From positions 4,548-68,547 of the forward strand of contig CAZHCS010000002.1 in the NCBI GenBank assembly GCA_964531475.1: 64,000 nucleotides of DNA. Reading direction: 5' to 3'. The position numbers and the translations under genes were made by a program. This DNA is from an uncultured Candidatus Saccharibacteria bacterium. Its GTDB lineage: Bacteria > Patescibacteriota > Minisyncoccia > Phycocordibacterales > CSBR16-119. Positions 40,267 through 53,523 of this stretch are shown in pieces (positions within the stretch are counted from its first letter, which is position 1; each line of letters begins with the position of its first letter). Under the pieces are notes generated by a model. That model was given only the letters and a program-made list of their open reading frames with translations, was not told where the DNA came from and did not search any database.

Positions 40267-41691
40267 CTAATCTTTACGCAAAAAAAGTGGCTTTTCTGGT
40301 TTTTTATTCTCTTTGATGAGTAACTGGATTACTGATGACGTTTCAGGTAAAAACGGCTCAAGAGCGACCGCGATACGCGCAAGTCTTTCAACACATGTTC
40401 GAATAATCTCTTTACCTTTTTCTAAATCATCTTTCACTACTGAAAACGGTTTTTCGGCATTAATATAACGATCAAGTTCGGTTATTTCTTTTGAAATAGC
40501 TTCCATGGACGCCTGGATATCGAAGCCTTGTATCTCGCCAGCGTAGACTGGCATTTCAACCAGAGGCTCACAATATTTTTCCGATAGCGTCATCGTGCGA
40601 CTAACGAGATTTCCAAGTCCATTGGCAAGATGAGCATTGTAACTTTCCTTAAAACGCTCAACAGTAAAAGGACTATCCTCGAAGCTTGAGATTTCAGAAA
40701 GAAGAAACATGCGAAGGGCGTCAGTTCCGTATTCGCGAGCGATCTCAAGCGGATCAACAACATTTCCAAGTGTCTTTGACATACGTACGCCTCCATCGGC
40801 AGTAATGAACCCATTTACTACTATCTGATATGAATTTGGGAGTCCCGCAGCGATAAGCATAGCTTGCCAAATGACGCCCTGGAAACGGGTATTATCTTTG
40901 CCGCAATACTGTGTCGGCGTACCATCCTGCCAAAACTTTTTGAAATTAGTTTCGTTCTCAGGCCAACCAAGTGTCGAGATGTAGTTAGAAAGCGCGTCAA
41001 ACCAAACATACATGACCTGGCTTTCGTCCCCTGGCACTGGTACACCCCAGGACATTTTCTCTTTCAATCGAGATATAGAAAAGTCTTCAAGTCCACGCGA
41101 CACGAACGCTTTCATTTCGTTATAGCGAAAATCGGGCACAATAAAATCTGGCCTTGTCTCGTAGAATGCGAGAAGTTTGTCTTGCAACGCAGAGAGCTTG
41201 AAAAAGTAATTCTCTTCGTCTATGAGCTCAATATTTGTTCCTGGATGAAGTGGACATTCTCCGTTTACGAGCTCAGAGTCAGTCTTTTCACTCTCGCAAC
41301 CGACGCAATATTTTGTTTGGTATGTTTTTTTGTAAATATATCCATTATCGGCAACCCTCTTCCAAAATTCCTGAGCGGCATGTAAATGATGCTCGTCAGT
41401 CGTTCGGATAAAATGAACTTCTGGATTAATACCAAATGCATCGACTTGTCCGCGAAAGACAGCGAACGCATCGTCCACAAATTGTTGCGGCTGCTTCCCC
41501 GCCGCTAGGGCTTTCGTGTAAATCTTCTGACCATGTTCGTCAGTGCCACTATTAAAAAAAACTTCATCACCAATTAATATATGATGTCTTGCTATGACGT
41601 CCGCGCGTATGAACTCAAGCGCATGCCCCATATGAAGCGGTGCATTCACATACGGAAGAGTAGTTGTTATGTAAAAAGGCTTACGACTCAT
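40267..41691 (-). CDS. metG: Methionyl-tRNA synthetase (short form)
   Basis: TTTLPYVNAPLHMGHALE (HIGH region), RMSKTLGN (KMSKS), Zn knuckle CVGCESE...CPLH. Confidence 0.95.
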   Translation of the reverse strand: MSRKPFYITTTLPYVNAPLHMGHALEFIRADVIARHHILIGDEVFFNSGTDEHGQKIYTKALAAGKQPQQFVDDAFAVFRGQVDAFGINPEVHFIRTTDEHHLHAAQEFWKRVADNGYIYKKTYQTKYCVGCESEKTDSELVNGECPLHPGTNIELIDEENYFFKLSALQDKLLAFYETRPDFIVPDFRYNEMKAFVSRGLEDFSISRLKEKMSWGVPVPGDESQVMYVWFDALSNYISTLGWPENETNFKKFWQDGTPTQYCGKDNTRFQGVIWQAMLIAAGLPNSYQIVVNGFITADGGVRMSKTLGNVVDPLEIAREYGTDALRMFLLSEISSFEDSPFTVERFKESYNAHLANGLGNLVSRTMTLSEKYCEPLVEMPVYAGEIQGFDIQASMEAISKEITELDRYINAEKPFSVVKDDLEKGKEIIRTCVERLARIAVALEPFLPETSSVIQLLIKENKKPEKPLFLRKD

Positions 41692-42748
41692 GCTGCATTT
41701 TGGCCAAACGCTCTTTCTCTAGGTCACCAATATATTCGAGCGCCGTCACTGCGACCGGTACCGCAAGAATAAGTCCCCAAAAACCGGCGAGTCCAACGCC
41801 GATCAAAACCGATAGGATAACCACAAGCGGAGAAACGCCTGTCATTTTGTTTACGACGAGAGGCGCAATAAGGTAGCCTTCGAGCTGCTGGATGACGAGG
41901 TACAGCGCGACAACCATAAGAGCCAAACTAATGCCGCCGCCAGCGAACGCAAGAGACACGGCCGGTATCGCCGCCAAGAAAATACCAAAAGGAATTAGTT
42001 CAAATATTGCGGCCACAACAGCCAAGAGAACAGCGTTTTTTACTCCAAGCAAAGAAAGTCCCAAAAATGTGAGCAGTCCGACAAGTATTCCCAATATAAC
42101 CTGTCCCTGCATCCAAAGAGCTATTTTTCTTTGTGATCTTTTCCATAGATCTATAACATACGCCTCGCTATGTATAGGCGAAGCAATACGCAAAAACGAC
42201 TCTATGCCGTCACGCGAAACAGACAGATAAAAAGATATTATGGCGACAAGAGCGACGTTTAATACTCCGCCGAACAATGTAGATATCGTATTGCCAAAAC
42301 CTGATGCAACGACAGATAAGAAAGACTGTGCACTTGAAACCAGATTATCTAGGTTGCTAGATGTGACCGAACCTGGGTTAACATCGCCCAGCGCAGCAAG
42401 GTCGACATTTGATATTGGCAGACCCTTTGGGAAATATTCCCCTATTACCGGCAACAGGTTGACGAATTCTGAAATCAAAACCGGTACGAAGAAGTAAAAT
42501 ATCCCAACAACCACCAGTGCTGTCAAAAGATACATGACAACGACAGACAAAACACGGTTGATGCGCGTCTTTTCTTTTAGATATTCGGCGGCCGTCCTGA
42601 TGAACGATGCCAAAACAACCGACGTCAAAACAACAAAAACCAAGTGTTTGAGCTTCCAGAGTGCGGCTATGACGACACCGGCAATCAGGACCTTGAAAAT
42701 GGCCTTGCGGCTTATATTGACCGTGTAGATTTTGTCACCTTCTTTCAT
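41681..42748 (-). CDS. AI-2E family transporter (PerM-like)
   Basis: 8 TM helices; ...LEGYLIAPLVVNKMTGVSPLVVILSVLIGVGLAGFWGLILAVPV. Confidence 0.8.
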   Translation of the reverse strand: MKEGDKIYTVNISRKAIFKVLIAGVVIAALWKLKHLVFVVLTSVVLASFIRTAAEYLKEKTRINRVLSVVVMYLLTALVVVGIFYFFVPVLISEFVNLLPVIGEYFPKGLPISNVDLAALGDVNPGSVTSSNLDNLVSSAQSFLSVVASGFGNTISTLFGGVLNVALVAIISFYLSVSRDGIESFLRIASPIHSEAYVIDLWKRSQRKIALWMQGQVILGILVGLLTFLGLSLLGVKNAVLLAVVAAIFELIPFGIFLAAIPAVSLAFAGGGISLALMVVALYLVIQQLEGYLIAPLVVNKMTGVSPLVVILSVLIGVGLAGFWGLILAVPVAVTALEYIGDLEKERLAKMQHES

Positions 42749-42781
42749 ACGACCAACTATACCAGGTTTGGCCTGTATTAG

Positions 42782-44095
42782 CTACGCGAGCTTTTGAGCG
42801 AAATAGTCGGATAAATCAGCGATTTTGACACGCTCTTGGGAGCCGTCATCGCGGTGGCGTATAGATACTGAGTCATCTTGCTCGAGTGTATCGAAGTCGA
42901 CGACGACACAAAACGGCGTACCGATTTCATCCTGACGGCGATAGCGCTTGCCAATGTTGCCATTGTCATCCCAAGCGACGCGGCCAAATTTCTTTTTGAG
43001 AGCTGCGTAAACTTCGCGAGCTTTGGCGACAAGTTCTGGTTTGTTTTTAAGTAAAGGAGAGACAGCGCATAGTACAGGAGCGATTGCGGGACTTAGTTTT
43101 AGATACGCCCTCGATTCCCCATTCATTTCGTCTTCGGTATAAGCAGAAACGAGAACGGCCAAAAAAGCACGGTCGGCACCAAGCGACGGCTCGATAACAT
43201 GAGGGGTTAGTTTCTCGCCCGCCTCTTCATCTAGATATGAATCAGCAAGTCCATGAGCTTTGAGGTCAAAGTCAGTACGATACGCCAGACCGAATAATTC
43301 TTTCCTACCAAACGGGAAATCAAATTCAAAATCTATTGTGCGCTTAGAATAGTGCGCCAGATCTTCTGGAGCAACTTCGAGTTCATGGATTGTTTTCGGA
43401 TCGATGCCAATACTTGTGGCCCATTCTTTGATAACGTTTTGCCACATAGTAAATGCTTCTTTCCATTCTGATTCTTTGACAAAGTATTCTATCTCCATCT
43501 GTTCGAACTCTCGAGATCGGAACAAGAAGTCACGAGGAGTGATTTCATTCCTAAACGCCTTACCTATCTGAGCAATACCGAATGGTAGCTTTGGATGATA
43601 CGCATCAAGTGTATTCTTGAAGTTCGCAAAAATTCCTTGTGCCGTTTCTGGACGAAGGTATGCGACCGAGGCTGAATCCTCAACAGCTCCAACGTTCGTC
43701 TTGAACATCATATTAAATTGGCGTGGAGCAGAAAGTTTTCCCTTACAATCAGGACAGAATTCCTTGTCATCTATTTGATCAGCTCGAAAACGATGTTTAC
43801 ACTTTTCACATTCGACAAGCGGATCAGAAAAACCGGCTACATGTCCGCTAGCTTCCCATACCTTTGAACTCATTAGAATAGCCGCGCGCACGCCGTACAT
43901 GTTCTCACGTGAAGTTACAAACTTTTCCCACCAAGAAGCCTTGATGTTGTCAAGGAGCTCATTACCCAAATGGCCGTAATCCCATGTACCAGCAAGGCCT
44001 CCATATATTTCAGAACCCTGAAATACAAAGCCGCGCCTCTTGCACAGGCTTACTATCTTCTGCATAAGGTCAGTAGGGTTATTGGACGGTGTCAT
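42782..44095 (-). CDS. glyQS: Glycyl-tRNA synthetase, dimeric class II type
   Basis: GFVFQGSEIYGGLAGTWDYGHLG..., FRNEITPRDFLFRSREFEQMEIEYF, SLGADRAFLAVL. Confidence 0.9.
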   Translation of the reverse strand: MTPSNNPTDLMQKIVSLCKRRGFVFQGSEIYGGLAGTWDYGHLGNELLDNIKASWWEKFVTSRENMYGVRAAILMSSKVWEASGHVAGFSDPLVECEKCKHRFRADQIDDKEFCPDCKGKLSAPRQFNMMFKTNVGAVEDSASVAYLRPETAQGIFANFKNTLDAYHPKLPFGIAQIGKAFRNEITPRDFLFRSREFEQMEIEYFVKESEWKEAFTMWQNVIKEWATSIGIDPKTIHELEVAPEDLAHYSKRTIDFEFDFPFGRKELFGLAYRTDFDLKAHGLADSYLDEEAGEKLTPHVIEPSLGADRAFLAVLVSAYTEDEMNGESRAYLKLSPAIAPVLCAVSPLLKNKPELVAKAREVYAALKKKFGRVAWDDNGNIGKRYRRQDEIGTPFCVVVDFDTLEQDDSVSIRHRDDGSQERVKIADLSDYFAQKLA

Positions 44096-45977
44096 GCTGT
44101 GAATTATAGTTACTGTCGCGATTTAGTCTAGTAGTTATAGGCTGGAGCGACCGTACTATGTCTACATTGGTGAAAACATCTCGGGCAGTCAATACCGTAT
44201 CCGACACTAGATTTGGAGCCGTGCCAGACTGAGAAGACGAAGGATTTAGGCGCACCTGGAAGTTGACCTGTCTTGGAGAAGATGATGTGCCGACTCCAGC
44301 TTCGACGGTGCCGATATTCCACGTAACCTCACGGGTCGGCGCGTTATAAGTTATCGACTGACCAGACGGACTCGTCGCGCCGACCCATTCGACATAAAGC
44401 GGAAGCGTGGCTTTGACCGTCGCCCCACTGACGCGATTGATCGTGTTTGCAATACTCCAAACTATCGTGTACGTCGTCGGCTGTCCCGAAGTTGGCGGTA
44501 TAGGTCCAGAATTCTGAAACGGTCCAGAATTATACAGTGCGTGACCAGTGATCGAAAGCTGTGTGCCAAATTTTACAGTCTTTTTTATAAAGTTCTCGAT
44601 CTCCAAAAAACTATTACCAAGTTCTGGCTTGCGCCCCCTGATCGAAAGATCTATCACGATTTCAGGATTTTTGGTCGAAGAACCAGAAAGAGAAAGCGGG
44701 CGGAAAGAGAATGATAGTTCCCCGCGATCACCTGGATCGATAGTCCCAAGACGACTAGATGTTTCCCTATTCCAAATTATAGTGCGAGTTGATGAGTCGT
44801 AAAAACCGTCATCGGAACTTATGGAATCAGGATCAAAAGCAGAACCAGAAAATTGTGCCGTTATCTCGACGTCGGTTATTTTGGCATCGAGAGAGTTAGA
44901 GAAATTTATAGAGCCTTCGGTAGACTGCCCAGCTATCGCAACAGATTCTGCTCCTACGCTACCGTTTATACTAAGGGCAAGATCCAAGAATGGCTGCTCG
45001 ATGGCGATTCTGTAGCTTTCGGAATTAAATTGTGTTCCGATAGTTTGTTCGTCATTTGGGTCTGCAGTGCCGGCATAAATATTGAACGCGCGGCTCTCGC
45101 CGGCTTCGGCTACAATAACACCTTCGACGCGAATCGTTTTTTCTGCGCCTTTGTCGAGATCGCCCAAGAACCAAATATTGTTAGAAAATGTTGGCTCTGG
45201 AGTTGATCGCTTCCAATCAAATCCAGGAGGATAATCGACAATGACCATCATATTTTCTGCAGCCTCTTCGGTGTTAAGGCTAGTTACGATATCAAAGGCA
45301 ATTTCCTGGTTTGTGTTTGATACTTCGGGGCCTTTTACAGAAAGGTTGAGCGGAGTCGACGAAATATTTACGACATATAGCTCCTCTTTAACGAAAATAG
45401 CCGAAGAGCCTGGAACACGGTACTCTAAAACTATATTTATGTCTCGTGTAGTTCCCTGCTGTCCGAAAAGCACCAGGTCGAGAAGTTTTTCCGAAACACC
45501 GCCAGCCGGAACTGTACCGACAGTAAAACGATCGCGCTCAATACTTTCGCCAACACCTGCGCCTTTCTGGTATTCAAGGAGCAGGTCGGAATATTCTAAA
45601 CTTACATTGTTCTTGTTTATTATTTCTATCTTCAAAGGCAAGGCTTCGCCTCCGGAAACAAAGGCGTTACCCAAAACATTTATCTCAATATTGTCTGCGG
45701 AAACAGTATTCGATTCTCCAAAAAACATAAAGGCTCCAAATATGACAGCCAAAGAGAAGAAAGCAATAGCGCCCAAGAAGAATTTCTTGAACATGGTATT
45801 TGAAAGAAGGCTTTTTTGCTCTTTTATAACAGCGGCCGGCTCATGTTTCCATTCCGAAGGAGCTTCGCGTTCGTCTTCATATATTGGACTGCGAGGTTTT
45901 TGTTTCGGCGCAGAGCGCGGGCTGTAGAGTTTTTCTTTGAGCCGATCGAGATGGCTTTTTCCTTTCTTTGGAGGCAT
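44079..45977 (-). CDS. Large membrane-anchored extracellular protein (single N-terminal TM, beta-rich ectodomain)
   Basis: Basic N-terminus, TM FFLGAIAFFSLAVIFGAFMFF, then approximately 560 aa rich in S/T/N/G. Confidence 0.5.
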   Translation of the reverse strand: MPPKKGKSHLDRLKEKLYSPRSAPKQKPRSPIYEDEREAPSEWKHEPAAVIKEQKSLLSNTMFKKFFLGAIAFFSLAVIFGAFMFFGESNTVSADNIEINVLGNAFVSGGEALPLKIEIINKNNVSLEYSDLLLEYQKGAGVGESIERDRFTVGTVPAGGVSEKLLDLVLFGQQGTTRDINIVLEYRVPGSSAIFVKEELYVVNISSTPLNLSVKGPEVSNTNQEIAFDIVTSLNTEEAAENMMVIVDYPPGFDWKRSTPEPTFSNNIWFLGDLDKGAEKTIRVEGVIVAEAGESRAFNIYAGTADPNDEQTIGTQFNSESYRIAIEQPFLDLALSINGSVGAESVAIAGQSTEGSINFSNSLDAKITDVEITAQFSGSAFDPDSISSDDGFYDSSTRTIIWNRETSSRLGTIDPGDRGELSFSFRPLSLSGSSTKNPEIVIDLSIRGRKPELGNSFLEIENFIKKTVKFGTQLSITGHALYNSGPFQNSGPIPPTSGQPTTYTIVWSIANTINRVSGATVKATLPLYVEWVGATSPSGQSITYNAPTREVTWNIGTVEAGVGTSSSPRQVNFQVRLNPSSSQSGTAPNLVSDTVLTARDVFTNVDIVRSLQPITTRLNRDSNYNSQHDTVQ

Positions 45978-45998
45978 GAGATATATGATACCACCAAA

Positions 45999-46580
45999 TC
46001 AGATGAGTTGTGTAGCTGCGAGTGACTTGTTTACTTCGCGGATTATGTTTTTCTTTGTTGCTGCAACTTTTTCCATGACTTCGCCGTTAAAAGGACTAGT
46101 GACAAAATCATGTCCAGCCTGTTCTCCCCAATAGCCGAGCGTGTGAAGAATCTTGAGCGCGAGCAAGGCTTCGACGGATTCGATGATAGCTCCGCCCAAT
46201 TTTTCTTGTGAAGTAAATTCATAAGCGGCAACCAGGTCGTCAAAGAGCGCCGGATGCGGCTCGCCCTCTGGGGCGAGCCGCATCAAGAGCTGCAAACTCC
46301 GCACGCGCGATGGTGTCGCTAGGCTTTTTTTGGAGTTTAGTTCGTGAATCGGTCGTGCGGACACCAAACGCCAGTACGTCTTGCCTTTAACAAGCGATAC
46401 ATCGATATATTTGAAATCCTGAACGAAGAACCGGAGGCGCGATTCGATTTTCCTGATTCCGGTCGCCTTGGCATGAATCACACCGAAATCTTTTGTAAAC
46501 AAATCAAAAGTCTTGTCCGCCTCCCCACTCGAGCGAGTCCTCATAACGAACGCTTCGGTGTGATAAATGGTGTGAGACAT
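45999..46580 (-). CDS. recO: DNA repair protein RecO (short form)
   Basis: N-terminal OB-fold pattern HTEAFVMRTRSSGEADKTFDLFTKDFGVIHAKATGIRKIESRLRFFVQDF... Confidence 0.55.
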   Translation of the reverse strand: MSHTIYHTEAFVMRTRSSGEADKTFDLFTKDFGVIHAKATGIRKIESRLRFFVQDFKYIDVSLVKGKTYWRLVSARPIHELNSKKSLATPSRVRSLQLLMRLAPEGEPHPALFDDLVAAYEFTSQEKLGGAIIESVEALLALKILHTLGYWGEQAGHDFVTSPFNGEVMEKVAATKKNIIREVNKSLAATQLI

Positions 46581-49500
46581 TATTTTGATATCTTCACTTC
46601 TTCCCCACCAAATGAAATATCTTTGATACCCGCAGTTTTCTTGAGTTCGTCTTCGAATCCGGTAATCACGTCTTTTTGGTTCTCTGGGATAGTGAGGCTG
46701 ACCATTTCACTTGGCAAAAGATTTTGGTCTTTGCGCATACCCTGCACACCCCGCAAGAATTCTCGAAAATCGCCTTCGCGTTTGAGTTCAGGAGTTATTT
46801 CCGTATCCAGAAAGACTCCTGGTTTTTCTTCTCCTAGATTTTCCAGAACAACATTTTTCACATTTATCTCATCAGCGATGATTTCGGTTACTTCATTCCA
46901 AAAAGGAATAGATCCGAAATCATGCTTTATAGAAAGCTTAGAAAGAGGTTGTCGAACTTTAATACCTGATTTTTGTCTCTGTTCAAGCCCCATTGTTACA
47001 AAGTTCCTCGCATGTTGCATGGTCGCTAATATTTCTGTATTAGATTTCTTCCCTTCTGGCCACTTGGCAAGATGCGCCGATTCTTCATCACGTTCGTTGC
47101 GCAGTGTTTGCCAAATATCTTCTGCCGCGAACGGCGCGAATGGGGCCAAGAGTCTCGCAATAGTTTTTAAGACATGATACAGAGTCGCCTTGGCATCAGT
47201 ATCACCATCCTTGAGACGGTCACGAGAGCGTCGCAAGTACCAAGTAGACAAGTCGTCAATGAAATCACGCAACGCACGAACTGGCTCGAGGAGTTTGTAT
47301 GAGTTCAGGCTTTCCGTCATGGAGTTCGTGAGCTCATTGAGCCGCTCAAGGATCCAGATATCGAGCACGTTGTGAGTGGCTAGTGAATAGTGACTAGCTT
47401 CTAGTGAACGATCGCGATAGAGTTCGTAGAACGCCAGCACGTTATAAAGCAGATTGAATACTTTGTTGCGAAGCTCTGCAACAGTTTTCTCATCGAAATT
47501 CTTTGAATCGCCCGGTTGATTGACCGAATACATCCAGAGGCGCAGCGTATCGACGCCGTACTTATCCATCATCTCCCACGGGTTGACGATGTTACCGATA
47601 GACTTACTCATCTTCTTGCCTTTGGCATCGAGAATATGCCCGAGACAAATGCAGTTTTTGTAAGCCTTGCCTTTACCCATGAGCGCGCCCACGGCGTGAA
47701 GCGTATAGAACCAGCCACGCGTCTGATCGACAGCTTCGGAAATAAAGTCTGCCGGATAACCCCTGCCTTTCGAGAGGAATCCGCCATCAATATACTTCTT
47801 GTTCTCGAACGGATAGTGATGTTGCGCGAATGGCATAGCGCCAGAGTCGAACCAAACATCCATGACTTCTTTTACACGACGGAATTCCTTGCCATCCTTT
47901 TCGAGCACAATGTCATCGATAAACGGACGGTGAAGATCGAGCTCTCTACTTGTCGAATTATCAACGTAGGCCTTTAAAATTTTTCCGTTATCTATCTGGT
48001 GGAACAATTTCATCGCTTCGTGATTATCGAGCCCGCGTAAAAGCTTGAACGCTATTTCATTCGTCCCCTGATGAGCAAAACAAACGATCGTTTTGCCAGC
48101 GTATTTCACCAACACCTCATCGAGGAAATTTTTTACTCGCGCTTCAAGGTCGGCCCAGCTTTCGCCAGTGTCACCACGTTTTACCAAAAATCTTTCATCT
48201 GTCGGCAATGCCTTGTACGCATCACGCGAAGCTTTGATTGCCGGATCATCTTGTGTCTGTTCTTCCCAGTTACCACTCTGTATCTCTCCGAGACGATCAT
48301 CAATGACAATATCAGCACTATCTGCATAAGCGCTTGCTGTCTGTCGGGAGCGCAGAATCGGTGAAGAAAATATAATGTCTGGTTTCTCGTCAGCCAATTT
48401 TTCTGCTGCTTCGGCTGCCTGCTTGCGACCAAGGGCTGTCAGCGGATGCTTGTCATGAGCAGAAGACGACATACGCATAACATTGTGTTCGGCCTCGCCA
48501 TGACGAACAAAAATTATCTTTGTGATTGACTGTTTTGAATAGGCCCGCAATGTTTCGACAGAATCAACAACCAATCGCTCCCCGTCCTCGCTCATCCAGA
48601 CCGGCAACGGCGTACCCCAATAACGCTCGCGCGAAATTGCCCAGTCTTTGATGTCTTTGAGCCACTCGCCGAAACGGCCATCACGAATATGAGACGGCTC
48701 CCAATTGATCGATTTATTTTCCTCTACCATTTCGTCGCGAAGTTCCGACATGCGGATGTACCACGAATCACGGGCGTAGTAGACAAGCGGCGTCTTGCAG
48801 CGCCAACAATGCGGGTATGTGTGTTCGTAATTTTTCTTGGCATAAAAGAGTCCGCGCGCAGTCAGGTCGTTGATGACGTCGACTGCAAGCGTCGGTTTAC
48901 CATTCTCGTCTTTTTCCATGGCGAACCTGCCAGAAAAGAATCCGGTGTTTGGTAGAAATTTACCATCGAGTCCGACAACGTGTTCTTTTGGAAGCCCTGC
49001 TTTCGTACCAAGCTCGAAGTCATCCTGGCCGTACATCGGCGCAATGTGAACAATGCCCGTACCGTCAACGGTTGTAACAAAATCGGCAACATAAACTTTG
49101 TGAGATTTGTCGTTTGGCTTGACGAAGTCATAGAGCGGCGCGTATTCCATTCCAGCCATCTCACTTCCCTTGTGTTCGGCGATGATTTCGTACGGTTCGG
49201 CGATGACCGAGAGGCGCTCTTTGGCAACAACTAAAATTTCTTCGCCCACTTTGGCTTCAACATAATCGATATCTGCACCGACAGCGAGCGCGACGTTCCC
49301 CGGAAGCGTCCACGGTGTCGTCGTCCAGGCGACGAAGTATGCTTTGACGAAACCTTTGATCGGAAACTTCGCAAAGATCGAGAGGTCTTTGACGTCTTCA
49401 TAACCCTGCGCGAGTTCATGACTTGCAAGTGGTGTTCCGCAGCGCGAACACCACGGTACGATACGGTAGTCTTTGTACAAAAGTCCGCGCTTCTCTACAT

Positions 49501-49993
49501 GTGCAAGCACACTCCAAAGCGATTCTATATACGAGTTATTGAAAGTGAAGTACGCATTCTTCTTGTCGACCCAATAGCCGATACGGTCGGTGAAGTCTTC
49601 CCAATCTTTTATGTATTCGAAAACAGAGTCCTTGCACTCTTTGTTGAATTTGCCGATGCCGTAGTCTTCGATAGCTTTTTTGGAATTAAGTCCAAGCTTC
49701 TTTTCAATCTGAAGCTCTACCGGCAAGCCATGCGTGTCCCAGCCGCCCTGACGGCGAACATGAAAGCCCTGCATCGTTTTATAACGAGGGATTACGTCCT
49801 TGAAAGCGCGGGCTTCCAGGTGATGGAGCGCGGGCTTGGCATTGGCCGTTGGCGGACCTTCGAAAAAGACAAATTCGCCCTCCGGAGATTCCTTTGTCAG
49901 AGTTTTTTCGAAAATCTTGTTATCCTGCCAAAATTTCAGGATTCGCTCTTCGCGAAGCGCCGCGTCGGATTTAGAGGGTTTTTCGTTTTCCAT
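46580..49993 (-). CDS. ileS: Isoleucyl-tRNA synthetase carrying an approximately 200-aa inserted histidine-phosphatase (PGAM-family) domain
   Basis: HIGH-region PALHHLEARAF, KMSKSIGN; insertion approximately aa 487-685 (about 47941-48535) with FVRHGEAEHN and SSPILRSRQTA signatures. Confidence 0.9.
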   Translation of the reverse strand: MENEKPSKSDAALREERILKFWQDNKIFEKTLTKESPEGEFVFFEGPPTANAKPALHHLEARAFKDVIPRYKTMQGFHVRRQGGWDTHGLPVELQIEKKLGLNSKKAIEDYGIGKFNKECKDSVFEYIKDWEDFTDRIGYWVDKKNAYFTFNNSYIESLWSVLAHVEKRGLLYKDYRIVPWCSRCGTPLASHELAQGYEDVKDLSIFAKFPIKGFVKAYFVAWTTTPWTLPGNVALAVGADIDYVEAKVGEEILVVAKERLSVIAEPYEIIAEHKGSEMAGMEYAPLYDFVKPNDKSHKVYVADFVTTVDGTGIVHIAPMYGQDDFELGTKAGLPKEHVVGLDGKFLPNTGFFSGRFAMEKDENGKPTLAVDVINDLTARGLFYAKKNYEHTYPHCWRCKTPLVYYARDSWYIRMSELRDEMVEENKSINWEPSHIRDGRFGEWLKDIKDWAISRERYWGTPLPVWMSEDGERLVVDSVETLRAYSKQSITKIIFVRHGEAEHNVMRMSSSAHDKHPLTALGRKQAAEAAEKLADEKPDIIFSSPILRSRQTASAYADSADIVIDDRLGEIQSGNWEEQTQDDPAIKASRDAYKALPTDERFLVKRGDTGESWADLEARVKNFLDEVLVKYAGKTIVCFAHQGTNEIAFKLLRGLDNHEAMKLFHQIDNGKILKAYVDNSTSRELDLHRPFIDDIVLEKDGKEFRRVKEVMDVWFDSGAMPFAQHHYPFENKKYIDGGFLSKGRGYPADFISEAVDQTRGWFYTLHAVGALMGKGKAYKNCICLGHILDAKGKKMSKSIGNIVNPWEMMDKYGVDTLRLWMYSVNQPGDSKNFDEKTVAELRNKVFNLLYNVLAFYELYRDRSLEASHYSLATHNVLDIWILERLNELTNSMTESLNSYKLLEPVRALRDFIDDLSTWYLRRSRDRLKDGDTDAKATLYHVLKTIARLLAPFAPFAAEDIWQTLRNERDEESAHLAKWPEGKKSNTEILATMQHARNFVTMGLEQRQKSGIKVRQPLSKLSIKHDFGSIPFWNEVTEIIADEINVKNVVLENLGEEKPGVFLDTEITPELKREGDFREFLRGVQGMRKDQNLLPSEMVSLTIPENQKDVITGFEDELKKTAGIKDISFGGEEVKISK

Positions 49994-50305
49994 CTATCGA
50001 ATTTACCATAAAAATGGCCACGAAAGAAGTTTGTAAAATTTTAAATTTTGGGTTATAAATTGGGAAATAAACCACCTTTATGAAGAATATGGCGCGTCGG
50101 GTGCGTCGGTTCTTCACAAAGAAGGACCCGCGCGTAAGAAAAGTACTCTTACAGATCGTAAGGGACCTAGTTCCACCTGAAATCCGGGGTAAGGCTTTGT
50201 CATCGCACCTCCTCGCGATGCGCAAAGAAATTATCCCCGGCAGACTACAAGGTGTACGTTTTGTCCAAGATTGATGGCTGGGTCTCTGACCTGGCCATCG
50301 TTCGT

Positions 50306-51976
50306 TTACATCCTCTCCGGTGCTTTGATGCCAAGGAGCCAGAGACCGTTATGGATAGTCTGACCGACGGCTTTGGCCAGGGCGATGTTATAAGAAGCGT
50401 TTACATTTTCAACATCGATAATCTTTGTGTTTCCGTACCAAGAATTAAATGCGCGCGCGAGCTCTAAAAGATAAATAGCAACATGATGCGGCGCCAAAAA
50501 GTTAATCGATTCTTCGACGACCTCTGGAAAACGCGTGAGCAAGCGTTCGACATCGCTCACAGCAAGTTCTCTTTTTTCTCCTGACTCGGTAATGCCCGCC
50601 TCGCGCGCCTTTTCGAGCAGCGAATTGATACGCGCATGCGTGTACTGCAAATACGGACCAGAGTCGCCTTCGAAAGAAAGCGATGTTTCTGGGTCGAAGT
50701 TTATATTCTGCCCGGGTTTTGATTTGAGGATGGAAAATTTGATCGCGGCGATGGCGACGGCGTCAATCATCTCTTGCGAGAGCGCGCGTTCGGCAGAGCG
50801 TTCGCGGACTTCTTCGGACACCGTATCGAGGATATCCGTCGCGAGCGGCACGCCACCGAGGCGGCTCGACATCTTTTGCCCCTTGAACGTCATACGGCCA
50901 TGGGGTACATGGCGATTATTGTTTGCCCAGGCATTATCTATCTTATACGCAGCATCAATGACCAAAGCAAAATGCTGAATCTGTTGATAGTCAGTTACAA
51001 ATATAGATAAGTCTGGATGATATCCTTCAAACTTCATCTTTATTAAACCAAGATCTTTTGCTTCATAAGTAGGATTTCCCTGGCTATTGATAAATACAGC
51101 TGTGTTTAACCAAGGTGTTGAAGTATCAGGGATATACACAATCGCGCCTTCACTTTCGGTAAAGACTTTTGGTGTATACTTCTCTACTAATTCTTTACCG
51201 ACAACGCCGGCCTCGCTTTCATAAATATAGCTATCGAAGTGCGAACCGAGCCGCGCCACAACGCTTTCGAAATATTTAATATTGAACTCTTTGCAGGCCT
51301 TGAAGAGCCGGAATTCGGGCGTGTCGGCCCCAGCGTAGAGATTGTCCGCGATCTCTTTGACACGCGATTGGATGCTTTCGTCTTCTTCGAAGCGTTTGGT
51401 GCCTTCGACATACGCATCGCCAAGCGCGCTGATCTCGAGATTCTCCGTATCGATATTTTTCTCAAGCAAGACGAAGATCGCTTTGGCAACGCCGAGCGAG
51501 ATATCCGACGGGAACGAGACGCTCGACACCTCTGCCCCGCTCGCGCGCATGAGGCGCACTAACGACTCGCCGATAGCGTTGTTCATCATGTGGCCGATGT
51601 GGAACGGCTTGAAGAGGTTCGGGCTCGAATGCTCGACGAGGATTTTCTGGCCCGCGTGGATGTTTGAAATGCCGAACTGTGCGTCGATGCCACGGATGAC
51701 GTTCGCAAAATACGCCGGTGAAAGGCGGAAATTGATGAACCCGGGACCCGCGACGTCGGTCGAGGTGACGAACTCGTGGGTTGGGAGCGCAGAGCGGATG
51801 GCTTCGGCGAGTTCGCGCGGATTCTTGCCAGCTTCTTTGGCCAAAGCGAGTGCGACGTTCGTCGAATAGTCGCCATGGGCGAAGACCTCCGGATGCTCGA
51901 GCGCCGGGTCAGCCGAAAATCCGAGCGCTGCGAGCGCTTCGGATATGAGCCTCTTTAATTCTGATTCTATATTCAT
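50306..51976 (-). CDS. argS: Arginyl-tRNA synthetase
   Basis: HSSPNLFKPFHIGHMMNNAIGESL; C-terminal anticodon-binding domain; start taken at MNIESE next to the msrA stop (the track ORF extends to 52039). Confidence 0.9.
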   Translation of the reverse strand: MNIESELKRLISEALAALGFSADPALEHPEVFAHGDYSTNVALALAKEAGKNPRELAEAIRSALPTHEFVTSTDVAGPGFINFRLSPAYFANVIRGIDAQFGISNIHAGQKILVEHSSPNLFKPFHIGHMMNNAIGESLVRLMRASGAEVSSVSFPSDISLGVAKAIFVLLEKNIDTENLEISALGDAYVEGTKRFEEDESIQSRVKEIADNLYAGADTPEFRLFKACKEFNIKYFESVVARLGSHFDSYIYESEAGVVGKELVEKYTPKVFTESEGAIVYIPDTSTPWLNTAVFINSQGNPTYEAKDLGLIKMKFEGYHPDLSIFVTDYQQIQHFALVIDAAYKIDNAWANNNRHVPHGRMTFKGQKMSSRLGGVPLATDILDTVSEEVRERSAERALSQEMIDAVAIAAIKFSILKSKPGQNINFDPETSLSFEGDSGPYLQYTHARINSLLEKAREAGITESGEKRELAVSDVERLLTRFPEVVEESINFLAPHHVAIYLLELARAFNSWYGNTKIIDVENVNASYNIALAKAVGQTIHNGLWLLGIKAPERM

Positions 51977-52521
51977 TTCAATAATTCTTTGTGGTTTTTC
52001 TCGAGCTTTTTTATCTTTGGAGCCACGACCAGCTGGCAATACGCCTTGTCCGGATTCTTGCCGAAGTAGTCGTGATGATAATCCTCGGCCGGATAGAACT
52101 CGTCGGCCAATGAGACTTCGGTCACGATAGCTTTGCCTGCTTGCGCATCGGCTACGAGGACGCCGTATTCGCGGATCTTTTCGTCTATCACATCCTTCTG
52201 TTCGTGCTCGGTGTAGAAAATGGCGGAACGGTATTGGTTGCCGACATCGGCACCTTGGCGATCGAGCGTGGTCGGATCGTGGCTGTCGAAGAAAACGTCG
52301 AGGATGGCTTCGGTCGAAATGTGTTCAGGATCGTATTCCACCTTTACGACTTCGGCGTGACCGGTCATACCAGAGCAAACTTCTTCGTACGTCGGAGCCC
52401 GTCCATCGGTCGGTGAATGCCCGCCCATATATCCGGGAGTGACAGAAAGAACGCCATGGAGGGAACGAAATACAGCCTCGGTACACCAGAAGCATCCACC
52501 GGCTAGGTATATCGTCTCCAT
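51973..52521 (-). CDS. msrA: Peptide methionine sulfoxide reductase MsrA
   Basis: IYLAGGCFWCTEAVF active-site motif. Confidence 0.9.
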   Translation of the reverse strand: METIYLAGGCFWCTEAVFRSLHGVLSVTPGYMGGHSPTDGRAPTYEEVCSGMTGHAEVVKVEYDPEHISTEAILDVFFDSHDPTTLDRQGADVGNQYRSAIFYTEHEQKDVIDEKIREYGVLVADAQAGKAIVTEVSLADEFYPAEDYHHDYFGKNPDKAYCQLVVAPKIKKLEKNHKELLK

Positions 52522-52533
52522 GGCGTTAGTTTA

Positions 52534-53523
52534 TCATAAATCGGCTAGCCCCGCTTTTCGAGATAGTTTCGAAGTATTTCCATGTGACAACAGGCCTTGG
52601 TAAGAAACAATGACTTCTTCCTTGGGGTTATCTTTCAGTTTCTTGAACATCCTATTTTTAGTGGTCGTGCGCAAAACCCTGTGATCGAAGAAATGCACCC
52701 AGCCCAAGAAATCAACGCCGGAGTTGATGGTTCGTATACTGATCTTGTCAGGATGGAGCGTAAGACGTAAACGAACATCGAGAAATTCTTCTATCTTTCC
52801 AAGCAATTGCGAAAGATATCCCTTATTCTCATACAAGATCACAAAATCATCCGCATAGCGAATATAATATTTTACTCGCAGTTCGTTTTTCATATACTGA
52901 TCAAACTCATTCATGTAAACATTCACCAAAAGTTGCGAGGTGAGATTGCCGAGAGGCAATCCCCTGCCTGGAGAGGTGTTAAAACTTTTCACCACCTGAC
53001 GCACGAGCCAGATGATATCTTTGTCTTCAATATGTTTATCCAGAATCTCAAAGAGAGTTTCTTGATCGATGGAAGCGAAGAATTTTTTAATATCGCATTT
53101 CAAAACCCAAAGCGTTTTCGTATTATTTCTGCTTACCTTGTAAACGAATGAACGAAATCGTTTCAACGCCCGATGAGTCCCCTTCCATTTGCGGCAAGAG
53201 TACGAGTCAACAACAAATTTCTTATCGAAATAAGGATATAGATGCCGGTAGATAGCATGGTGAAGCAATCGGTCACGGACACTCGCTTTGTGAATATTTC
53301 TAGGCTTCGGATCGGAAATATTGAAGGCATAGTAACCGCCGTGAACATATCTTTTCGCAACCAAATCTCTGTGTAGGATCAAAATATTATCCATGAGATG
53401 GACTTGAAATTCCTGTACGTCTTTCTTGGCGCGTTTTCCTCTCACGAACTCACGCCACGCGGAAAGCAAATTCTCCGTGGAGATGATATCCTTATACCTA
53501 TGAATAAAAATATTTCGAGCCAT
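52534..53523 (-). CDS. Diversity-generating retroelement (DGR) reverse transcriptase
   Basis: RGLPLGNLTSQLLVNVYMNEFD (the DGR-type I/LGxxxSQ in RT motif 4), RYADDFVI (YxDD), C-terminal SYQGLLSHGNTSKLSRK; 329 aa with no maturase/X domain. Confidence 0.85.
   Translation of the reverse strand: MARNIFIHRYKDIISTENLLSAWREFVRGKRAKKDVQEFQVHLMDNILILHRDLVAKRYVHGGYYAFNISDPKPRNIHKASVRDRLLHHAIYRHLYPYFDKKFVVDSYSCRKWKGTHRALKRFRSFVYKVSRNNTKTLWVLKCDIKKFFASIDQETLFEILDKHIEDKDIIWLVRQVVKSFNTSPGRGLPLGNLTSQLLVNVYMNEFDQYMKNELRVKYYIRYADDFVILYENKGYLSQLLGKIEEFLDVRLRLTLHPDKISIRTINSGVDFLGWVHFFDHRVLRTTTKNRMFKKLKDNPKEEVIVSYQGLLSHGNTSKLSRKAGLADL

Follow-up and report, generated by a model that had tools for sequence, protein, structure and literature searches.

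A histidine phosphatase domain in the CP3 loop of a type-2 isoleucyl-tRNA synthetase from the Candidate Phyla Radiation

Introduction

Aminoacyl-tRNA synthetases are highly conserved, and the insertions usually found in their cores are RNA-handling or editing modules, not unrelated enzymes. One departure from this was recorded by Kantor et al. (2013, mBio, PMC3812714), who gave one descriptive sentence to the 'unusual isoleucine-tRNA synthetase' of candidate phylum SR1. In that isoleucyl-tRNA synthetase (IleRS), which belongs to the Candidate Phyla Radiation (CPR), the sequence is interrupted by phosphoglycerate-mutase-family (PGAM-type) domains. The subject of this work is a related case, the ileS gene on a stretch of 64,000 nucleotides from contig CAZHCS010000002.1 of an uncultured CPR bacterium (hereafter the window, to which all positions refer). 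Its product is likewise an IleRS interrupted by a domain of this superfamily, and the domain has the residues expected of an active phosphatase.

The SR1 protein has two PGAM-type domains and a Nudix domain and comes from a UGA-recoded lineage; its backbone has the canonical HIGH signature and shares only about 35% identity with that of the window protein. The latter has a single copy, located in the CP3 subdomain, on a backbone with the A/GxHH variant of the class I signature, and is read in the standard genetic code. A second described relative from the same radiation is the curated family NF040702, 'ileS_w_GNAT' (isoleucine--tRNA ligase, N-acetyltransferase domain-containing), exemplified by a protein of SR1 bacterium Aalborg_AAW-1 (P0504). 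This is also an IleRS with a foreign enzyme domain in its core, but the domain is a GNAT instead of a histidine phosphatase and sits at around aa 216, where the editing domain begins. The window protein scores 333 bits against NF040702 (cut-off 1999), and Pfam finds no GNAT in it. In a search of the literature on IleRS or other aminoacyl-tRNA synthetases with a histidine phosphatase or in Patescibacteria, the sentence by Kantor et al. was the only trace found; recent large IleRS phylogeny and structure papers, Brkic et al. (2023) among them, make no mention of these inserts. The IleRS–phosphatase fusion is thus widespread in CPR, as described below, yet essentially uncharacterised.

The inserted phosphatase domain

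The gene, the insert and its catalytic residues are located as follows:
46580..49993, minus strand: ileS, type-2 (eukaryote/archaea-like) isoleucyl-tRNA synthetase of 1137 aa carrying the inserted domain (open reading frame with ATG start)
47969..48544, minus strand: segment inserted relative to insert-free IleRS2, aa 484-675, in the CP3 loop (alignment to 8c8w)
47963..48517, minus strand: His_Phos_1 domain PF00300, aa 493-677 (Pfam)
48497..48505, minus strand: RHG motif with R497, nucleophile H498 and G499 (invariant, 121/121; aligns to the catalytic His9 region of PspA, 4ij5)
48482..48484, minus strand: N504, Asn of the phosphate pocket (kept in 117/121)
48350..48352, minus strand: R548, second catalytic Arg, within SSPILRSRQTA (121/121)
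48284..48286, minus strand: E570, proposed acid/base Glu, within GEIQSG (121/121)
48071..48073, minus strand: H641, second catalytic His, within FAHQG (121/121)

An earlier note on this DNA had proposed a histidine-phosphatase domain of PGAM type inside IleRS, at 47941-48535 (aa 487-685). This holds: the interval and the residue range correspond, and PF00300, of branch 1 of the superfamily, is matched with an E value of 5.5e-36 (124.5 bits versus a cut-off of 21.7) over profile positions 1-181 of 194. The motifs on which the proposal was built are also where it had put them, with RHGEAEHN at 497-504 and SSPILRSRQTA at 543-553 inside the domain and TLRAY (481-485), LDLHRP (685-690) and DVWFDSG (712-718) around it. 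The catalytic set was assigned through alignment to PspA (4ij5). Its His-Arg-His-Glu residues (R497, H498, R548, E570 and H641) are kept throughout the 121 aligned insert-bearing sequences.

This conservation stands out against the rest of the domain. Over the 121 sequences, the insert has a mean identity to the query of 37.5%; outside the insert the figure is 69%, and within the Rossmann core it reaches 78%. Judged from this alignment, the non-catalytic part of the insert is evolving about twice as fast as the synthetase, while the phosphatase active site is under strong purifying selection. Since the catalytic residues are invariant despite the low identity of the insert, catalysis has probably been retained.

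As modelled by AlphaFold2 on its own, the insert is an independent alpha/beta domain (pLDDT 96.8, pTM 0.92). Foldseek matched this model to many structures of the family with a probability of 1.00 and a TM-score of 0.73-0.78, the top matches (0.73-0.77) being GpgP, PspA, HFP, CobC and Rv3214. Most short phosphatases superpose with a root-mean-square deviation of 2.5-3.5 Å (target-normalised TM-score, TMt, 0.69-0.77), whereas dPGM structures fit worse (4.2-7.8 Å, TMt 0.58-0.69). With about 190 aa, the domain also does not match the long form of dPGM, which has about 230-250 aa, an extra substrate-binding segment and a C-terminal tail. None of the more specific models reaches its cut-off: TIGR01258 (pgm_1) gives 28-34 bits versus 81.7 and covers the first ~70 residues only, NF038349 (dPGM_arch) 85-86 versus 225, TIGR03162 (CobC) 87.7 versus 162.9 and NF045917 (PspA) 69.5 versus 350. 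'PGAM-like' is therefore right for the superfamily but not for the activity, as the domain is not a mutase by these cut-offs and its nearest structures are short small-molecule phosphatases. Both the profile scores and the model point to an active-looking short-form phosphomonoesterase, not a phosphoglycerate mutase.

The residues conserved in at least 95% of the inserts are all generic to the superfamily, with none family-specific that would hint at a substrate. The insert is mildly acidic (isoelectric point about 5.8-6.0, net charge -4), like its free-standing relatives; its charge shows no added basic surface as a signal of RNA binding and lends no support to direct tRNA binding. Histidine phosphatases act on phosphomonoesters, so that the 2',3'-cyclic phosphates that had been suggested as substrates are unlikely.

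Insertion point

The surroundings of the insert comprise:
48614..48643, minus strand: CP2-CP3 linker WAISRERYWG, aa 451-460 (motif position)
48545..48613, minus strand: N-terminal half of CP3, aa 461-483, leading into the insert; reads MSEDGER and is without the Cys pair of the zinc knuckle (alignment to 8c8w)
47861..47968, minus strand: C-terminal half of CP3, aa 676-711, leading back into the Rossmann fold; reads EKDGKE and is without the second Cys pair (alignment)
47840..47860, minus strand: DVWFDSG strand, aa 712-718, opening the second Rossmann half (motif position)

In the alignment to the IleRS2 of P. megaterium (8c8w), query residue 483 corresponds to residue 475 and query residue 676 to residue 477. 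By this alignment, about 190 residues are added cleanly and no host segment is lost. Insert-free proteins of Gracilibacteria have the five-residue loop GMTIT where the phosphatase domain sits. Pfam splits tRNA-synt_1 into two stretches with His_Phos_1 between them, and there is no step in GC content across the insert.

The insert begins 24 residues past the WAISRERYWG motif and ends 36 residues ahead of DVWFDSG (aa 712). It thus lies after the CP1 editing domain and CP2 and before the DVWFDSG strand and the KMSKS loop; in the alignment to 8c8w it has no counterpart. The CP3 subdomain spans residues 473-534 in C. albicans IleRS and 459-526 in yeast IleRS, and because the position of the insert matches these limits, it was assigned to CP3. 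In yeast IleRS, the CP2-CP3 linker helps to form the pocket for the tRNA CCA end and for reveromycin A (PMC7955072), which suggests that CP3 is anchored at the rim of the synthetic site.

The IleRS of T. thermophilus and of P. megaterium have a zinc-binding Cys cluster (CxxC...CxC) in CP3. These zinc-knuckle cysteines are missing in 108 of the 121 insert-bearing relatives and kept in 13, and their loss may be linked to the insertion. The other zinc cluster (C182, C185, C396 and C399) is invariant.

Host synthetase and gene neighbourhood

Further features of the synthetase are:
49820..49831, minus strand: class I signature, aa 55-58, with non-canonical ALHH where HxGH is expected (alignment)
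48809..49405, minus strand: CP1 editing domain, ~aa 197-395, with intact WTTTPWT and GTG..H.A..G..D motifs (match to 1wk8)
47600..47614, minus strand: KMSKS loop, aa 794-798 (motif position, conservation)
46937..47362, minus strand: anticodon-binding helical domain PF08264, aa 878-1019 (Pfam)

The protein passes the equivalog threshold of TIGR00392 (875.4 bits versus 621.4), with the match broken in two around the insert (aa 6-487 and the C-terminal part). Its best sequence match in the Protein Data Bank is 8c8w (P. megaterium IleRS2; E 8e-231), and PF08264 is followed by PF19302 (DUF5915), which is the type-2 organisation of the C-terminus, with no zinc-binding domain there. In the editing domain, WTTTPWT lies at aa 223-229, and T224-T226, G311-T312-G313, H316 and D325 are invariant. 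In 127 aligned sequences, KMSKS, the editing motifs and many residues of the core do not vary. The signature follows the pattern A/GxHH across the clade, with ALHH in 68/121 and GIHH in 47/121. According to Brkic et al. (2023), A/GxHH is tolerated by IleRS2 only and confers hyper-resistance to mupirocin. The exception models for MupA and MupB gave 772 and 749 bits and missed their cut-off of 1900; the protein is related to them as an IleRS2 but is neither MupA nor MupB.

The AlphaFold2 model of the full-length protein is confident throughout (mean pLDDT 91.0, pTM 0.84), and the junctions of the insert (pLDDT 94-96) are predicted to be rigid. By fold, the protein is closest to IleRS2 structures in which the C-terminus is resolved; TM-scores normalised to the target are 0.81 for 8c8v, 0.87 for 8wnd_B and 0.90 for 1ile. 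Because the motifs and the editing site are kept, the model is confident and it superposes on solved IleRS structures, the host is probably a working IleRS, with the extra domain predicted to be rigidly docked.

Four synthetase genes lie on the minus strand within 12 kb (40267-52039), namely MetRS (40267-41691), GlyRS (42782-44095), IleRS and ArgRS (50306-52039). MetRS, GlyRS and ArgRS of the window have no extra domain. Between the four lie genes for an AI-2E transporter, a 632-aa DUF11 protein and RecO. The start of the RecO-like open reading frame (45999-46580, minus strand) abuts the ileS stop, sharing base 46580, which suggests translational coupling, and the DUF11 frame (44079-45977) overlaps the GlyRS start by 17 nt. 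Further along, a 329-aa frame (52534-53523, minus strand) with a reverse-transcriptase domain (RVT_1, E 7.5e-23) adjoins MsrA and could belong to a retron, a diversity-generating retroelement or a group II intron-type reverse transcriptase.

Distribution in Patescibacteria and multiple insertion sites

PF00300 is present in 120/120 of the best full-length database matches (55-92% identity, 1112-1335 aa). The organisms named among them are Candidatus Nomurabacteria, Pacebacteria/Paceibacterota, Minisyncoccia and 'Patescibacteria group', and NCBI names the proteins 'class I tRNA ligase family protein' only. A search with the insert and its flanks gave about 40 further fusions at 35-48% identity, some labelled Uhrbacteria or Niyogibacteria, and a species-level genome scan with the insert gave two loci, in a 'Patescibacteria group bacterium' and a 'Candidatus Nomurabacteria bacterium'. 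In total, 264 distinct CPR IleRS proteins from many metagenomes were found to carry at least one His_Phos domain, including equivalents of the SR1 protein (L003, P0395 and others). The CP3 phosphatase appears, from these sequences, to be fixed in the Paceibacteria clade of the window. The fusion had been called unusual in the earlier note, which is true among characterised synthetases; in Patescibacteria, however, it is the norm for a large clade.

Based on four landmarks of IleRS (RYWG, DVWFDS, KMSKS and WYxRRSR), the His_Phos copies were mapped to three sites. Site A is CP3, as in the window; in some proteins it holds a tandem array of two or three copies. The other two sites are separated by KMSKS, with site C ahead of it, after the DVWFDS strand, and site B behind it, before the anticodon-binding helix bundle. 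Of 169 complete proteins, 138 have A, 17 B only, 7 C+B, 6 A+B and 1 A+A+B, while a further, partial protein has four copies. The C+B architecture is present on contigs of up to 1.06 Mb. Every extra copy, whether at site B, at site C or in tandem, keeps the full catalytic set. The window protein shares its exact insertion point with 138 complete relatives and with lineages that use genetic code 25. The CP3 insertion point does not shift by a single residue between backbones of the Paceibacteria type (A/GxHH) and those of the Gracilibacteria type (HYGS), which share only ~35% identity with one another.

Compared in pairs, the copies from the three sites are 35-48% identical, too flat a distribution to decide on a single lineage. 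An exhaustive HMMER search for a donor with the insert alone gave no match below E 1e-30. As the best free-standing relatives (35-46% identical) are no nearer to the insert than other embedded copies, neither a donor subfamily nor a substrate class can be assigned. Among the best matches to the insert, with E values down to 1e-29, are also about 80 free-standing proteins of ~405-420 aa with two tandem His_Phos_1 domains (P0241, P0250 and others).

Two proteins on very long contigs (P0032 and P0016) looked like an IleRS genuinely split at the insert. This candidate was rejected, as one frame is broken by in-frame TGA only. Because TGA is the only interruption and neighbouring genes are fragmented too, such split versions are best explained as UGA-recoded genomes called with code 11. 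The recoded IleRS genes, such as those at L003:4717-8982 (5 in-frame TGA) and L001:4948-8622 (2), stand in databases as 3-4 fragments, with neighbouring Dus, DnaG and BipA likewise fragmented.

Other cassettes and their turnover

Further enzyme domains are found on IleRS in the code-25 lineages, whose labels are Gracilibacteria, Absconditabacteria or SR1. Nudix or GNAT occurs at a fourth site (D), where the editing domain starts (~aa 216), and a Ser_hydrolase domain occurs in CP3, alone or behind His_Phos. Nudix was sought in the fusions examined first (L003, P0254, P0261 and others) without a match and turned up once the code-25 clade was searched. One Paceibacteria-type fusion, P0212, has a C-terminal HD domain (aa 1140-1207, PF01966/PF13023), present on 3 contigs. 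Taken together, these alignments show the IleRS of CPR, at the level of sequence, as one system in which four permissive loops take up exchangeable cassettes, namely Nudix, GNAT, Ser-hydrolase, HD and between one and four copies of His_Phos.

Insert-free IleRS proteins of ~1030 aa exist in the same code-25 clade. P0412, with a CP3 phosphatase, has 87% identity to the insert-free P0439 over the 1027 positions that they share, as much as two insert-free proteins have to each other, and P0504 (with GNAT) and P0502 (without) are 93-99% identical. Since such near-identical backbones differ by whole cassettes, the cassettes come and go quickly in at least these lineages, and IleRS works without them.

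A number of other insertions were seen as well. Four proteins of the code-25 lineages (P0460, P0465, P0467 and P0472) have a CP3 insert of ~195 aa that extends the RYWG-to-DVW spacing to 263 aa instead of 68; it matches neither the His_Phos hidden Markov model nor precomputed Pfam families and may be an undescribed type of cassette. For P0434, a code-25 IleRS of 1677 aa, a Y1 transposase domain (PF01797) is listed. Compared with P0439, P0412 also has two copies of an in-frame repeat of ~30 aa ('...SFPxxGKEFKIEVS...'), at ~aa 216-243 (site D) and 900-935 (site B). The copies recall small insertions that keep the reading frame, for example Rickettsia palindromic elements, and may give a clue to how DNA enters the loops.

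Possible function

The reading that we favour, with a probability of about 0.5, is that of a functional IleRS2 with an active small-substrate phosphatase cassette that is accessory to aminoacylation and probably protective or housekeeping. A complete His_Phos_1 domain is grafted into a surface loop of CP3, a subdomain that the CP2-CP3 linker holds at the edge of the synthetic site. Based on its residues and its modelled fold, the phosphatase would be active on phosphomonoesters and belong to the short type with small substrates, as do PhoE, PspA, CobC and GpgP. It would assist aminoacylation without being required for it. Physical and expression coupling to IleRS would matter, the precise geometry less so, because the same domain family entered IleRS at three sites, of which site B is far from the acceptor-end pocket. 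The weakest step, and a speculative one drawn by analogy, is that the domain might remove the phosphate from a nucleotide-like small molecule that disturbs isoleucine charging, be it an inhibitor, an antimetabolite or a by-product. A protective or housekeeping role is favoured because the partner cassettes belong to detoxifying or nucleotide-(pyro)phosphate-cleaving families, because turnover is fast and because the backbone has the A/GxHH hyper-resistance motif. The GNAT domain of MccE2 and the serine peptidase MccF, for instance, inactivate aminoacyl-nucleotide inhibitors of aminoacyl-tRNA synthetases (PMC8323819).

Several points weigh against this reading. The conserved positions of the insert are generic and do not point to a nucleotide over a sugar phosphate or phosphoserine as substrate, and we know of no natural phosphorylated inhibitor of IleRS. 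The fixation of the insert in the clade of the window (120/120 best matches) fits housekeeping as well as conflict, and rapid turnover is seen in the code-25 lineages only, with a backbone ~35% identical to that of the window. In addition, tethering gives a soluble small-molecule enzyme little kinetic gain, which leaves the fusion itself unexplained. A tentative and rather doubtful extension might be that IleRS serves as a platform, with the exchangeable cassettes in its four permissive loops acting as target-tethered immunity or repair against toxins and antibiotics that hit isoleucine charging. The threats would be, for example, aminoacyl-nucleotide mimics or tRNA-end-modifying toxins, and the phosphatase of the window would be the most widespread cassette, fixed in Paceibacteria.

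The main rival to an accessory phosphatase, possible though doubtful in our view, is a metabolic enzyme (a phosphoserine phosphatase, a glycolytic phosphoglycerate mutase, or a phosphatase of CobC or sugar-phosphate type) that, in a reduced genome, hitch-hikes in an essential and constitutively expressed gene without any functional tie to isoleucine charging. In its favour, metabolic phosphatases are the nearest matches in both sequence and structure, conservation extends to the catalytic residues, a large clade of Paceibacteria has the insert in a fixed state as housekeeping predicts, the 64-kb window has no second His_Phos gene, and CP3 and the other sites are variable surface loops tolerant of insertions. 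The scores, however, are far under the metabolic equivalog cut-offs (dPGM_arch, CobC, PspA, pgm_1). Hitch-hiking would also leave unexplained why one family struck IleRS at least three times, at three sites and in up to four copies, why four further enzyme families are found on IleRS, and why cassettes differ between near-identical strains. Another rival is healing of the tRNA 3' end. Toxins of the toxSAS type pyrophosphorylate the CCA end and block charging, small alarmone hydrolases (SAH) restore it, and the domain could act in an analogous way. This precedent, the anchoring of CP3 on a linker that lines the CCA-end pocket, the predicted rigidity of the junctions and the Nudix and HD cassettes of CPR IleRS, which are of families that cleave nucleotide (pyro)phosphates, all speak for it. 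However, 17 complete relatives have the domain at site B only, in the anticodon-binding helical domain far from the acceptor end, which weakens the action near the tRNA 3' end that the earlier note had considered, and 7 more have C+B without a CP3 copy. No basic surface has been added to the domain, which is acidic, and all the structures nearest to it are of small-molecule enzymes. Repair would also not suit GNAT and Ser-hydrolase cassettes, and there is no reason why tRNA(Ile) alone should be repaired. We therefore consider tRNA-end repair unlikely as a general explanation, but for the CP3 copies it is still attractive, given the role of the linker and the hydrolase precedent.

A non-catalytic module, such as a ligand sensor, a docking surface or a stand-in for the lost zinc knuckle of CP3, would agree with the missing CP3 zinc cysteines in 108/121 insert-bearing proteins and with junctions that the model predicts to be rigid. 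This is improbable, since the invariance of the catalytic residues in 121 sequences and all extra copies is the signature of retained catalysis, and insert-free close relatives exist, which argues against a structural need. The chance of an artefact, whether a chimeric assembly, a pseudogene with a frameshift or a pair of neighbouring genes taken for one, is negligible. Nothing speaks in its favour, as the split versions P0032 and P0016 only looked like fragments and are explained by code-11 calling of UGA-recoded genomes. The single unbroken open reading frame, the survey of the best 120 matches, the pattern of in-frame TGA and the 264 independent proteins that share the architecture refute it.

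An apparently active phosphatase in the core of an essential synthetase is thus found across a large part of the CPR. If the cassettes are coupled to charging, they would reveal which stresses (natural inhibitors, toxins or damaged tRNA) act on isoleucine charging in episymbiotic bacteria; a drug target that carries its own resistance or repair enzymes would, if true, be a new principle. From a practical perspective, metabolic reconstructions of CPR genomes could misread the embedded domain as a phosphoglycerate mutase, and the four mapped permissive loops are ready sites for engineering domain insertions into class Ia synthetases.

Comparison with known systems

Compared to the bacterial IleRS2 structures (8c8u, 8c8v and 8c8w) and 1ile of T. 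thermophilus, the window protein has the same order of domains, with the HUP/Rossmann core, the CP core, CP1 to CP3, the anticodon-binding domain and the type-2 C-terminus. It differs by the addition of a ~190-residue enzyme domain in CP3 and the loss of the CP3 zinc-knuckle cysteines. The A/GxHH signature that was engineered into 8c8w (Brkic et al. 2023) is the variant that the window protein has as well.

The insert shares its fold and catalytic residues with the short histidine phosphatases PspA (4ij5), GpgP Rv2419c (4pz9/6s2q), CobC (6e4b/6nru), the riboflavin-pathway HFP (9mmh), PhoE (1h2e) and Rv3214 (2a6p). All are compact (~190-210 aa), with TM-scores of 0.73-0.77 and 24-29% identity. 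These phosphatases are free-standing, usually dimeric and metabolic, whereas the insert is embedded in another enzyme.

The bacterial CCA-adding enzyme has an HD phosphohydrolase domain. Together with the SAH hydrolases, MccE2 and MccF, this domain provides the closest functional analogy. His_Phos_1 is not homologous to any of these accessory or immunity domains, and none of them is inserted inside a synthetase, so that the functional link is one that we infer by analogy. The likeness would lie in the concept, a small enzyme that removes a block or an inhibitor from the tRNA or synthetase step, and the cassette families found on CPR IleRS (HD, GNAT, Ser hydrolase and Nudix) overlap with those of the accessory and immunity enzymes.

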